Source of the DNA: Eledone cirrhosa
Taxonomy: Eukaryota
Length of the DNA stretch: 64,000 nucleotides
Direction of reading: 5' to 3'
Assembly (NCBI GenBank): GCA_964016885.1
Contig: OZ024748.1
Coordinates: forward strand, 6,386,001 to 6,450,000
Shown here: positions 9,410-61,793 of the stretch, piece by piece
Layout: every line of letters starts with the position of its first letter
Position numbering within the stretch: position 1 is the first letter of the stretch
Notes under the pieces: generated by a model
Databases searched by the model: none
Told to the model about the DNA's origin: nothing
The model's input: only the letters and a program-made list of their open reading frames with translations
Translations under genes and position numbers: made by a program

Positions 9410-9411
<2 letters not shown>

Positions 9412-9612
9412 GGAACGAGTAGGACCCCGACGGCTGAGCTCAAGCCGTTTCGACGGCTAATTCTGGACTTTTTTTAGTCCAGAATTAGCCGTCGAAACGG
9501 CTTGATCTCAGCCGTCGGGGTCCTACTCGTTCCTATTACCCACTCTACTACCTTAAGTATTGAGTACTTTGGTGCGTTATGGTCCACCTGGTTCCTTACC
9601 ACATTTCCTTCG

Positions 9613-9615
<3 letters not shown>
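9410..9615 (+). mobile_element. Family B hairpin-plus-tail element inserted in (TA)n
   Basis: ~60-bp inverted arms around a short T loop, then an ~80-bp tail with TATTGAGTAC (9558-9567). The direct arm holds GAAA-CGGCT-loop-AGCCG-TC (9494-9516), a hammerhead 3' half. Confidence 0.85.
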
Positions 9616-9644
<29 letters not shown>

Positions 9645-9651
<7 letters not shown>

Positions 9652-10012
9652 TTCAAAATATTAACAAAAATAGACATTCGTGTGATCAAGTATATTTTGT
9701 TATACATATTTCAGAGGTACTGAGCTATCTTCAACAGTACGTCCTCAGTATACTACCATGACTGAATTTTAACCATCTACTATGTCAGGGTATGTCATGC
9801 ATCATCTTATTTTATCTGATGAGGACGTACTGTTGAAGATAGCTCAGTACCTCTGAAATATGTATAATAAAATATACTTGATCACACGAATGTCTATTTT
9901 TGTTAATATTTTGAATTAATATTAATAATTCCGGAAAACCATATCTGTTGAGTGCTTCTAATCTATTGTAAAACTCATTCTTTGATTTATTCATTGAACC
10001 TTGTTTAACCTT

Positions 10013-10106: not shown

Positions 10107-10314
10107 TAACGAAGGAATTGTGGTAAGGAACCAGATGGACCATAACGCACCAGAGTACTCAATACTTAGGGTAGTAGAGTGGGTAATAGGAGAAAGTATG
10201 ACCCCGACGGCAGAGCTCAAGGTGTTTCGACGGCTATTTCTGGATGTATGTATGTAGTCCAGAAATAGCCGTCGAAACGGCTTGAGCTCTGCCGTCGGGG
10301 TCATACCTTTTCCT
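10107..10314 (-). mobile_element. Family B element, opposite orientation
   Basis: Tail (reverse complement) on the left, ~60-bp arms, loop TGTATGTATGTAG, flanked by (TA)n. Confidence 0.85.
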
Positions 10315-10339
10315 ATATATATATATATATATATATATA

Positions 10340-10639
10340 TAGGAAAAGGGTCAAGATCCCGACTGCAGAACTCAAGCCGTTTCGACGGCTATTTCTTGGT
10401 CCAGAAGCTGTCGAAACGGTTTGAGCTCTGCCGTCGGAGTCTTGACTCTTTATTTATATATATATATTTATAGCTATATATATATCAAGAAAGAGGGTAT
10501 GGTAAGATACAAGGTAGACCATAATGTACCAGAGTACTCAATACTGAGGGTAGTAGAGTCGGTAATATTAAGAGACTCAGGACCCCGACGGCAGAGCTCT
10601 GGCCGATTCGACAGCCGTCGGGGTCCCGAATCTCTTACT
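10340..10639. mobile_element. Two further partial family B copies (10340-10452 hairpin only; 10487-10639 tail plus shortened hairpin)
   Basis: Share CCCCGACGGCAGAGCTC and GCCGTCGGGGTC with other family B copies; the second also has the tail segment CCAGAGTACTCAATAC. Confidence 0.8.
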
Positions 10640-10651
10640 ATATATATATAT

Positions 10652-25615: not shown

Positions 25616-25656
<41 letters not shown>

Positions 25657-25716
25657 AAAGAGTAGGGACCCCCGACGGCTGAGCTCTTGCCATTTCAACA
25701 GCTAGTTCCGAAGAGG
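25657..25716. mobile_element. Family B fragment
   Basis: AGAGTAGGGACCCCCGACGGCTGAGCTC. Confidence 0.7.
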
Positions 25717-26868: not shown

Positions 26869-26870
<2 letters not shown>

Positions 26871-26978
26871 CAAAGAAAGTGTGGTAAGATACCAGGTGGA
26901 CCTAATACGGCTGGCTTAGTTCGGATCTAGCTGTCGCAACGGTCGGAGCTCAGCGGTAGGGGTCCTGACTCTTTTCCT
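26869..26978 (-). mobile_element. Internally deleted family B copy
   Basis: GTGTGGTAAGATACCAGGTGGACC (tail) joined to GAGCTCAGCGGTAGGGGTCCTGACTCTTTTCCTA. Confidence 0.7.
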
Positions 26979-27445
26979 ATATATATATATATACATGAAC
27001 ACAAATACACAGTGAAAATATATATATTCATATATATATTTCTTTTCGAGTACAGTGTGATGTACTTGATGTAATGAGGTGATATTATCGCCGTAATGAA
27101 AACAAATTTCATTAGTGTTAATGAAAATTACTCTCAAAAGAGGCAAGGGGGCGCAACTCCAATAATTTCATTTAACCAAACCTGAATTTTAAATTGATGG
27201 AAGGGATTGACTGTAACCATTTAATAGGTAAATGGCAACATTAGACATACTTCAGTACTTGTTGCAAATCATTCTGTTCCGAGTTCAAATCCCATTTAAG
27301 TCAATATTGGGTTTACAACAATTTGTGGCTGATAGAATAAAGAGTCTCTGAAGTACTGGAATAGATTTAATAGATTTTCCTTTCCTCACCAAAATAGCTT
27401 GTATTTTGCCTAAATTTAAAGCCATATTTTCTATGATAGCTTTCT

Positions 27446-32865: not shown

Positions 32866-33125
32866 TATTAGAAATGTAAGCTATCGCCATATTTTGACTA
32901 AAGAAATTAAAGAAATTATTTAGCCTGATAGTGGGGTTAAGAACCCTCGGAGAAATGGAAAAAGATGAGTATTGACGTCAATACTTATCTTTTTCCATTT
33001 CTCCGAGGGTTCTTAACCCCACTATCAGGCTAAATAATTTCTTTAATTTCTTTAGTCAAAATACGGCGATAGCTTACATTTCTAATAATTTCAAAACCAC
33101 TCGCTGTTTCGAAAATACTCTTACT

Positions 33126-39423: not shown

Positions 39424-39461
<38 letters not shown>

Positions 39462-39660
39462 GAACAAGTAAGACCCCGACGGCTGAGCTCAAGCCGTTTC
39501 GACGGGTAATTCTGGACAGGAGTCCAGAATTAGCCGTCGAAACGGCTTGAGCTCAGCCGTCGGGGTCTTACTTGTTTCTATTACCCACTCTACTACCCTA
39601 AGTATTGAGTACTTTGGTGCGTTATGGTCCACCTGGTTCCTTACCACATCTCCTTCGTTA
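39462..39660 (+). mobile_element. Family B hairpin-plus-tail element
   Basis: ~56-bp arms and a short AGGA loop. GAAA-CGGCT-TGAGCTC-AGCCG-TC at 39539-39561, TATTGAGTAC at 39603-39612. Confidence 0.9.
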
Positions 39661-40826: not shown

Positions 40827-40854
40827 CTGTGTGTGTGTGTGCGTATATATATAT

Positions 40855-40968
40855 AACAACAGAAATGTGGTAAGGAACCAGATGGACCATAACGCACCAG
40901 AGTACTCAATACTTAGGGTAGTAGAGTGGGAAATAGGAAAAAGTATGACCGGGGTCATACTTTTTCCT
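40855..40968 (-). mobile_element. Family B copy with collapsed hairpin
   Basis: Tail plus TAGGAAAAAGTATGACC-GG-GGTCATACTTTTTCCTA. Confidence 0.85.
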
Positions 40969-41020
40969 ATATATATATATATATATATTGTTATATTTGG
41001 GGAGGGTCATATTGCAAGAA

Positions 41021-52250: not shown

Positions 52251-52876
52251 CTTTTAATGTGTATGAATATGTGTGAGGGTGTTGGTGTCTTTTACTGTGT
52301 GTGATGCTGTGCTTAAATGTGTGTTTGAATGTGTGTGCCTATGTATGTGTCGTGTAAGTGTGTATGAGTGTGTTTGAATATGTGTGTTTATGTATGCGTC
52401 ATGTGAGTGTGTATGACTATAAGTGTGATGGTGTGTTTGAATGTGTGTGTTTATGTGTGTGTGAATGTGAATGTGTATATTGAGACTACTTATTATATCC
52501 AGTATATGTATATGTTGATGTATGTTTGTGTGTGGGAGTATTCTGTTTTTAATTATATATGATAGAATTTATGGCGATGTTGTTGTTGTTGTTGGTAGTG
52601 ATGGTGAAAGGAAGATTATCGATGTATATATAGAGTCGTCCATAGGTTTCATAGTATTCTGCTGTATATGGATAGATATATCTGTGTGTGCGCGTGTATA
52701 TATGTATCTATATATCTGTATATGTTTATGTCTATATGCGCGTATGAGTATATGCGTTACTTGTGCGTGAATTTCAATTCTCGATATTTTTACAAGAAAG
52801 AACAATAATATGATTGTGTGCAAAAGTGTACGTACACAAATACACATAAACAAACGCACACAACACATGCATGTGC

Positions 52877-61540: not shown

Positions 61541-61543
<3 letters not shown>

Positions 61544-61714
61544 CAAAGGAAGTGTGGTAAAGAACCAGGTGGACGATAACGCACCAGAGTACTCGATACT
61601 ATGTGTAGTAGAGTGGATAAGTGGGTAATAGAAAAGAGTCAGGACCCCGACGGCTGAGCTCCCTAGCTCTCGAAACGGCCGGAGCTCAGCCGTCGGGGTC
61701 CTGACCTTTTCCTA
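61541..61714 (-). mobile_element. Family B element with asymmetric arms
   Basis: Tail with GTACTCGATA, arms GTCAGGACCCCGACGGCTGAGCTCC / GGAGCTCAGCCGTCGGGGTCCTGAC. Confidence 0.85.
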
Positions 61715-61793
61715 TATATATATATATATATATACATAAATACATATGCCTATGTATTAAATATGCTTAGGTACATGAATATACACACAGTGA

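Follow-up and report, generated by a model that had tools for sequence, protein, structure and literature searches.

Short fold-back copies of a Penelope-like element in Eledone cirrhosa carry half a hammerhead ribozyme and suggest an RNA start inside it

Results

Family B in the window

We analyzed a 64,000-nucleotide stretch of Eledone cirrhosa DNA (contig OZ024748.1, positions 6,386,001 to 6,450,000), referred to here as the window. BLAST located nine loci of one repeat family, family B, within it. At 9410-9615, a 60-nt minus-strand arm (9469-9410) and a 140-nt plus-strand arm (9476-9615) stand head to head with six T between them (9470-9475), and (TA)n lies at the outer ends of both. Element positions are numbered with the A of AGTCCAG as +1, which puts GAAA at +19 to +22 and the end of the GUC triplet at +41.

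9410..9469, minus strand: short arm, about +1 to +60 of the element, with the hammerhead 3' half and (TA)n outside
9470..9475: junction T6; three of the T may be the natural -3 to -1 bases or A added to a cDNA end, the remainder filler
9476..9615, plus strand: long arm, about +1 to +140, with the hammerhead 3' half, an 80-nt tail and (TA)n outside
9476..9482, plus strand: AGTCCAG, the 3' end of loop II; putative capped 5' end and transcription start at 9476
9483..9493, plus strand: 3' strand of stem II (AATTAGCCG-T-C11.1), its partner present in long copies only and missing here
9494..9497, plus strand: core GAAA (G12-A15.1)
9497..9515, plus strand: helix III (strands 9497-9502/9510-9515) and loop III, a GAGCTC palindrome in the family and GATCTC in the 9476..9615 arm
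9514..9516, plus strand: GUC triplet, predicted cleavage after 9516 (+41)
9517..9521, plus strand: 3' strand of stem I, GGGGT, its partner ACCCC in long copies
10107..10316: family B fold-back, minus long arm and plus short arm, filler TGTATGTATG
10355..10451: family B fold-back, degenerate
10500..10640: family B fold-back, inner ends trimmed back
25656..25713, minus strand: lone arm of a diverged subfamily (B2)
26870..26980: B2 fold-back, about 8 natural bases 5' of +1 retained on the plus arm
39458..39660: family B fold-back with an AGG junction; a cap-type G precedes +1 on the plus arm
40854..40970: family B fold-back; plus arm begins at +41/+42, the predicted cleavage site (one case)
61541..61715: B2 fold-back

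The preliminary description had read the direct arm at 9410-9615 as the 3' half of a hammerhead ribozyme, and that half is all that any of the nine loci carries. Its three loops at the turn were recovered (the T-run at 9470, TGTATGTATGT near 10246 and AGG near 39519). The CTGANGA half was absent as stated, and no hammerhead 5' half was found in the nine loci or in the 10 kb to either side. Without both core halves in cis, the window copies are not type I hammerheads by themselves, and an Rfam search of the window gave no hammerhead among the best 150 of 333 matches.

A 20-nt head pattern (+6 to +25) matched the 3.0-Gb genome exactly at 52,740 places and its reversed control at none, so that family B is not a product of chance. 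Moving the 5' edge of the pattern from +6 to +1 and then to -9 lowered the count to 27,184 and 4,848, a drop that is partly due to mutation in a longer pattern. In contigs of two public runs, of unrecorded kind and possibly from the source sample, summed depth rose about 20- to 30-fold around +1 and fell after +140; transcript starts are not visible in such contigs.

The parent element

Long pairs contain the parent of these arms, a 3,542-bp unit with one ORF of 717 aa (+232 to +2385) and a ribozyme that straddles the unit boundary. By eye, its protein (P0001) has motifs of a reverse transcriptase (RT) and, at the C-terminus, of a GIY-YIG endonuclease (FDIES, YRDD, FLDV, VIYQC...YIG). It also carries DKT (as SDKT), LRWR in place of RWK, the CxCx5C linker CNCPDRSIC, CNLCSEE and a CxH motif (CKH/NKKDELVTACKH). 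Searches with the 717-aa ORF matched no Pfam family and no PDB sequence, and a single-sequence structure prediction had a pLDDT of 32.

The Hydra clade comprises Penelope-like elements (PLEs) with a C-terminal endonuclease (EN+), such as Hydra-1_Obim, and a typical length below 3 kb (Craig et al. 2021, PMC8557442); here and below, published systems are compared as described in the portions of the cited papers that were consulted. P0001 closely resembled the first 400 aa of Hydra-1_Obim in a by-eye alignment with the supplement proteins. The parent shares with the clade a single ORF joining RT and GIY-YIG, in which DKT, RWR for RWK, YRDD, the CxCx5C linker, CxxC and CxH occur beside conserved E and N. 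It also shares the layout of the clade, with (TA)n targets, partial tandems, inverted 5'-truncated copies and a tail at one end. It differs in being a separate family with a 3.54-kb unit and in its ribozyme: the Hydra-clade rows of File S2 (PMC8557442) have CTGANGA and a loop II of 3-10 nt in 26 of 26 cases, whereas the parent has TTGANAA and about 34 nt. A canonical hammerhead and a unit under 3 kb are general traits of the clade, not diagnostic ones. On its motifs and the by-eye comparison, we class the parent of family B as a Hydra-clade PLE. Family B itself consists of short arms, abortive copies of this element.

Copies with the ORF (205 matches of one subfamily pattern) are a small minority beside the short fold-backs, as they would be if family B were an independent non-autonomous element, MITE-like or a retrozyme, that spreads as a short fold-back unit. 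We give this next to no credence: junctions vary from locus to locus, the unequal arms bear the subfamily marks of coding elements, and the signals beyond the arm ends are absent from short copies. In non-LTR retrozymes, tandem units without coding capacity each hold a whole type I hammerhead; the arms do not qualify as such, being pieces, with half a ribozyme each, of a coding element.

A different arrangement was seen at L330:2286-4522 (356.03 Mb), where seven tandem 299-nt units with 0-1 differences end in a long tail. Each unit fuses -62 to -26 to +1 to +262 of the parent, and so retains both ribozyme halves with a shortened loop II. This array fits the retrozyme layout and looks like a retrozyme newly derived from the parent; the account of retrozymes as PLE derivatives (10.64898/2026.07.22.740005) is relevant to it alone.

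The ribozyme of the long copies

Upstream of the family heads (30 heads examined) lies a common extension, TACCCC-TTGANAA-GNTCGGCTA, with 3,616 exact copies in one subfamily group. The 5' half that had been expected in longer copies is thus at the predicted place, with TTGANAA and not CTGANGA as its core. A genome search for CCCC-CTGANGA-GACGGC, the form expected at first, returned 5 matches, all unrelated to family B, against 2 for the control. We also rejected 31 genome matches with CTGANGA upstream of the family core, as the 20 inspected were junction filler, chance matches or chimeras with the 5' half of another family.

TTGANAA was read in 58 of 71 candidates, about 6 of which are falsely anchored rows, and N7 took all four bases (TTGAGAA 40, TTGATAA 13, TTGAAAA 4, TTGACAA 1). 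The remainder were TTGAAGA (2), four other single variants including CTGAGAA (1), and 7 without a call. The long copies therefore depart from the canonical CUGANGA core in that C3-G8 is replaced by U3-A8. Among 18 copies picked for diversity, positions 3 and 8 were U-A in 13, U-G in 2 and other in 3, with N7 free. GAAA, the NUH triplet, G10.1-C11.1 and helices I-III are all present, the helices pairing at 86-94% with modest statistics. Over the same copies, 89% of cells paired, compared with 29-51% in slid controls, and stem II had three compensatory pairs, mainly from two diverged copies. The covariation score was modest, being reached by 13 of 500 shuffles, and the other four measures were not significant. 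The hammerhead was the lowest-energy fold in 2 of 4 complete copies, with weak z-scores (-2.2 to +0.6). AGTCCAG forms the 3' end of the roughly 34-nt loop II, 7 nt past the top of stem II. Loop III has 7-9 nt, and helix III, first described as 6 bp, has that length in some subfamilies and 5 bp in others. In sum, the hammerhead of the long copies is complete, of type I and of the U3-A8 form, and is predicted to cleave itself.

The same replacement of C3-G8 by U3-A8 occurs in PLEs of S. mansoni (Cervera and de la Pena 2014, PMC4209133); a literature search for activity of a C3U/G8A hammerhead, with subscription papers outside its scope, found nothing. The S. mansoni element Cercyon (PMC4209133) resembles the parent in its U3-A8 pair, type I form, long helix II, short helix I and palindromic loop III, and in having motifs close together on opposite strands. 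Cercyon has a minimal helix III, whereas that of the parent has 5-6 bp, and most copies here are halves cut in loop II. In the consulted part of that paper, no transcription start is placed within the Cercyon ribozyme.

Two arms at L144:6748-7164 have the core TTGAAGA, whose U3 and G8 may represent a step between C3-G8 and U3-A8. At L007 and L020 near 1500, family B heads are fused straight to the CTGANGA half of another hammerhead family; that family also opens the window (about 25-77), a case of inner-junction joining across families.

Inner and outer ends of the arms

Arm starts clustered between about -4 and +8, with a tail to about +28. The turn at AGTCCAG that was first described is real as a cluster and is not fixed to that base. 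We discarded an x-drop best-of-many mapping, which overcalled extension to -4 since partner arms mimic ATTC. The 59 short junctions comprised 32 with filler, a class inflated by diverged arms, 21 with microhomology and 6 that were blunt, so that untemplated joining, as originally proposed, fits the first class and not the other two.

Among 100 arms, the first matches listed for a downstream pattern, 49 began after +1, 31 stopped near +1 and 20 continued. Of 205 matches of one subfamily pattern that ran on toward the ORF side, we followed the first 30; 25 of these extended beyond 1 kb, and every one of the 25 (about 21 insertions) crossed +1 into natural upstream sequence, as against 20 of 51 arms (Fisher p 4e-8). 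Single arms held up to four whole units and crossed +1 up to five times, and the 5' ends of long arms scattered along the unit. The short and long arms of family B, by comparison, stopped at the same base despite 58 versus 138 nt of synthesis. Two kinds of template are the simplest reading of passage through +1 in one set and a stop there in the other.

The preliminary description had explained the stop by an RT that stalls at stem II on a continuous RNA, uncleaved or re-ligated, with the ends joined by untemplated bases. Stem II is real, a weak hairpin involving AGTCC is possible in loop II, and both the filler class and the 49 of 100 listed arms that begin downstream of +1 are compatible with stalling. 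The end, however, lies in loop II and not in the stem, 7 nt beyond its top, and is crossed by 25 of 25 ORF-long copies and repeatedly by single arms. From these ends, stalling at stem II/loop II appears unlikely, and the account as a whole very unlikely. One part of it was borne out, in that the cDNA does cross the hammerhead cleavage site. Re-ligation is dispensable for the short copies, since their template appears to begin at AGTCCAG and would lack the half needed to cut in cis.

There was no pile-up of arm starts at the cleavage site or +42 among 211 arms reaching the tail, a set that misses very short arms. The plus arm at 40854-40970, which starts at +41/+42, could come from cleaved RNA; it is one case only.

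Runs of 13-16 A or T occur at inner junctions at L138:5011-5077, L185 and L141, consistent with repeated addition of A to cDNA. At L333:3517-4174 we found 257-nt tandem units (+1 to +254) with T-run joins, the identical junction occurring twice. The array suggests that cDNA ran off at +1, gained A and then jumped to a short RNA's end, or else that the template was a small circle without the whole ribozyme.

The outer ends of arms fell near +58 or +138. Of 82 head-to-head pairs, one of which may have been counted twice, 69 were short with long, 6 short with intermediate, 2 short with short, none long with long, and 5 other. Since either arm could reach further 5' (24 versus 20, with 7 ties), plain copying of the long cDNA does not account for the short arm, and simple self-copying fold-back of a single cDNA was ruled out.

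By analogy, the pairing fits two internal start sites with both strands extended, as in PAc, a Poseidon element of Anolis carolinensis (Frangieh et al. 2024, PMC11167929). PAc nicks and extends both strands at AT-rich DNA, has two internal start sites 3' of its hammerhead and uses uncleaved RNA as its main substrate, all of which may be likened to the parent. In vitro, PAc uses an equal start site on both strands (PMC11167929), whereas 69 of our 82 pairs have one of each. The tail of about 80 nt is also unlike PAc, and the ORF, which starts in stem II in PAc, starts about 190 nt beyond the cut site here.

The base at -1

Position -1 naturally holds T or C; in 6,172 copies it holds a purine. 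Among the 100 of these listed, a hand count gave 87 G and 13 A; the window is 33% A and 18% G. We examined 94 purine junctions, 90 from the listed places and 4 from partner arms, and found G in 83 and A in 11. Where the partner arm did not explain the purine, G outnumbered A by 44 to 8. Where it did, the figures were 38 and 3, an excess that matches, as expected, pairing of a terminal cDNA C with G. In a control one base downstream, the non-natural base among 100 listed matches was G in 17, C in 40 and T in 43 (hand count).

The -1 G was mostly single, with a second G before it in 14 of 83, and was spread evenly over short (42) and long (41) arms. At 6 of 15 loci with both arms at +1 the mark stood on both (CTGGACT-C...G-AGTCCAG). 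In a diverged subfamily of 612 copies, with another loop II and the same TTAGT, G was present in 24 of 30 examined; the TYAGT motif at +1 is kept while the rest of loop II diverges. A natural -1 G in a hidden master copy was ruled out, as the bases before the G vary and the G occurs in all subfamilies. A single G at the +1 boundary but not at +2, in a position held where the loop differs, also counts against a stall at stem II.

The comparison of G with A leaves out pyrimidines by design. In the 31 arms that stopped near +1, the base at -1 was T in 13, C in 12, G in 4 and A in 2. Added A, the end of the partner arm or a start lying a few bases upstream can each account for T or C there, and some arms keep natural bases to -3/-4, so that starts may scatter or ends be rewritten.

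The m7G cap is known to be copied as one extra G in full-length L1 insertions, and many invertebrate promoters have TCAGT/TTAGT as their initiator. A single G at -1 in both arm types points to run-off at a capped 5' end, which in turn would mean that transcription likely starts inside the ribozyme. With the extra G at the inner ends as the clue, the genomic copies suggest that the short arms were copied from capped RNA, and that this RNA likely begins at AGTCCAG, within loop II of the ribozyme. By eye, we saw no DPE match at +28 to +32. Literature searches, with subscription papers outside their scope, found nothing on a cap-derived G and, for a start site within a PLE hammerhead, plant retrozymes only; an RNA start inside a ribozyme combined with two template classes was not found in the portions of the literature examined.

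The template could instead end at +1 through processing, either by a nuclease cut in loop II or by decay blocked at stem II, the G then reflecting a preference of the enzyme for adding C; the same G would be expected from an RT with a general bias toward C addition at template ends. All of the genomic data show the template end only, G is in the minority among arms stopping at +1, and starts scatter by a few bases. On the other hand, the added base is mostly one G, the end sits on a motif that is kept while loop II diverges, and Drosophila Penelope has internal promoters (PMC2377424). We consider processing unlikely.

The boundary might also be a splice acceptor or branch point, with copies made from spliced or lariat RNA. 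A pyrimidine tract and AG occupy -9 to +2, where TTTTCATTTAG resembles a 3' splice site, and Penelope of D. virilis has introns that overlap its hammerhead (PMC4209133). Splicing is nonetheless highly improbable here, given that the copies keep the AG and that the 94 junctions examined show no constant upstream exon or leader.

Discussion

We propose that the short arms lack the 5' half of the hammerhead because they were probably made by run-off on capped RNA beginning at AGTCCAG, that their parent is the 3,542-bp Hydra-clade element, and that the long copies came from another template. RNA polymerase II would start at the A of the initiator-like TYAGT in loop II. The resulting mRNA would have only the substrate half at its 5' end, could not cut in cis and would keep its cap; an mRNA with that half alone would not remove its own cap. 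The element's enzyme would nick the (TA)n target and prime both strands at fixed internal sites, at about +58 and +138. Because these sites would lie near the RNA 5' end, the products would be run-off cDNAs of 58 and 138 nt which, once joined, are family B. Both cDNAs would run off at +1, often gaining a few A or, across from the cap, a single C. Their two ends would then be joined by trimming, microhomology or filler to give the fold-back.

Long and multi-unit copies cross +1 without a stop, which points to a template with no end at that site. This template is most likely a circle formed by hammerhead cleavage and ligation, and otherwise read-through RNA from tandem copies. Circular RNA templates have been proposed for PLEs (PMC4209133; reviewed in PMC6765202), and the role of the hammerhead, with the choice between a linear and a circular template, is stated to be unresolved in the consulted portions of PMC8557442, PMC4209133 and PMC11167929. 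Neither the element class nor the U3-A8 core nor the inverted layout is new. What family B would add is a transcription start predicted to the single base from DNA alone, an explanation of how the mRNA would escape its ribozyme, and evidence that one element is copied from two classes of template.

The internal promoter of D. virilis Penelope lies in a pseudo-LTR with an initiator, and its expression needs a partial tandem (Schostak et al. 2008, PMC2377424). Transcription there begins 46 nt ahead of an intron of 75 nt that ends at helix I, which puts the start upstream of the ribozyme, whereas ours is predicted to lie inside it. The plant LTR retrozyme NbRZ1 (PMC12029980) likewise has a promoter and a hammerhead in one repeat, and there the intact ribozyme cuts off the capped end and prevents translation; initiation within the ribozyme would sidestep this problem. 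NbRZ1 differs in being non-coding and in starting upstream of the whole ribozyme.

The two halves of one natural unit co-folded into the exact hammerhead at -23.4 kcal/mol, and in this model end-to-end assembly of ribozyme halves is possible. We raise as a rather doubtful extension that the split ribozyme is a life-cycle switch, in which the enzyme half of the 3' copy would pair with the 5' end and cut off the cap, and a second cut would free a 3.5-kb circle. If so, RNA begun in loop II would carry the substrate half at the 5' end, next to the cap, and a whole ribozyme copy at the 3' end. The capped RNA would yield protein and abortive mini fold-backs, the circles would yield full, more-than-unit and multi-unit copies, and tens of thousands of insertions would record both templates in the genome.

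Several other repeats were seen alongside family B. One arm spanning L326-L327 holds four whole 3,542-bp units at 99.8-100% identity, and the 5' end of this arm continues as a tandem array, more than 45 copies long, of a 55-bp ORF piece (about 1755-1812). Further retroelement ORFs lie at L087:456-2597 on the minus strand and at L095:8168-9556; one has a Pfam RVT_1 match, and the other encodes another protein of Hydra type with 34% identity to P0001. Within the window, 9650-9920, which adjoins the locus at 9410-9615, is a fold-back of another hammerhead family with the core CTGATGA and arms that differ upstream of the core. A perfect-stem hairpin at 32920-33033 belongs to a further repeat family and gave a sub-threshold chance match to a miRNA model.
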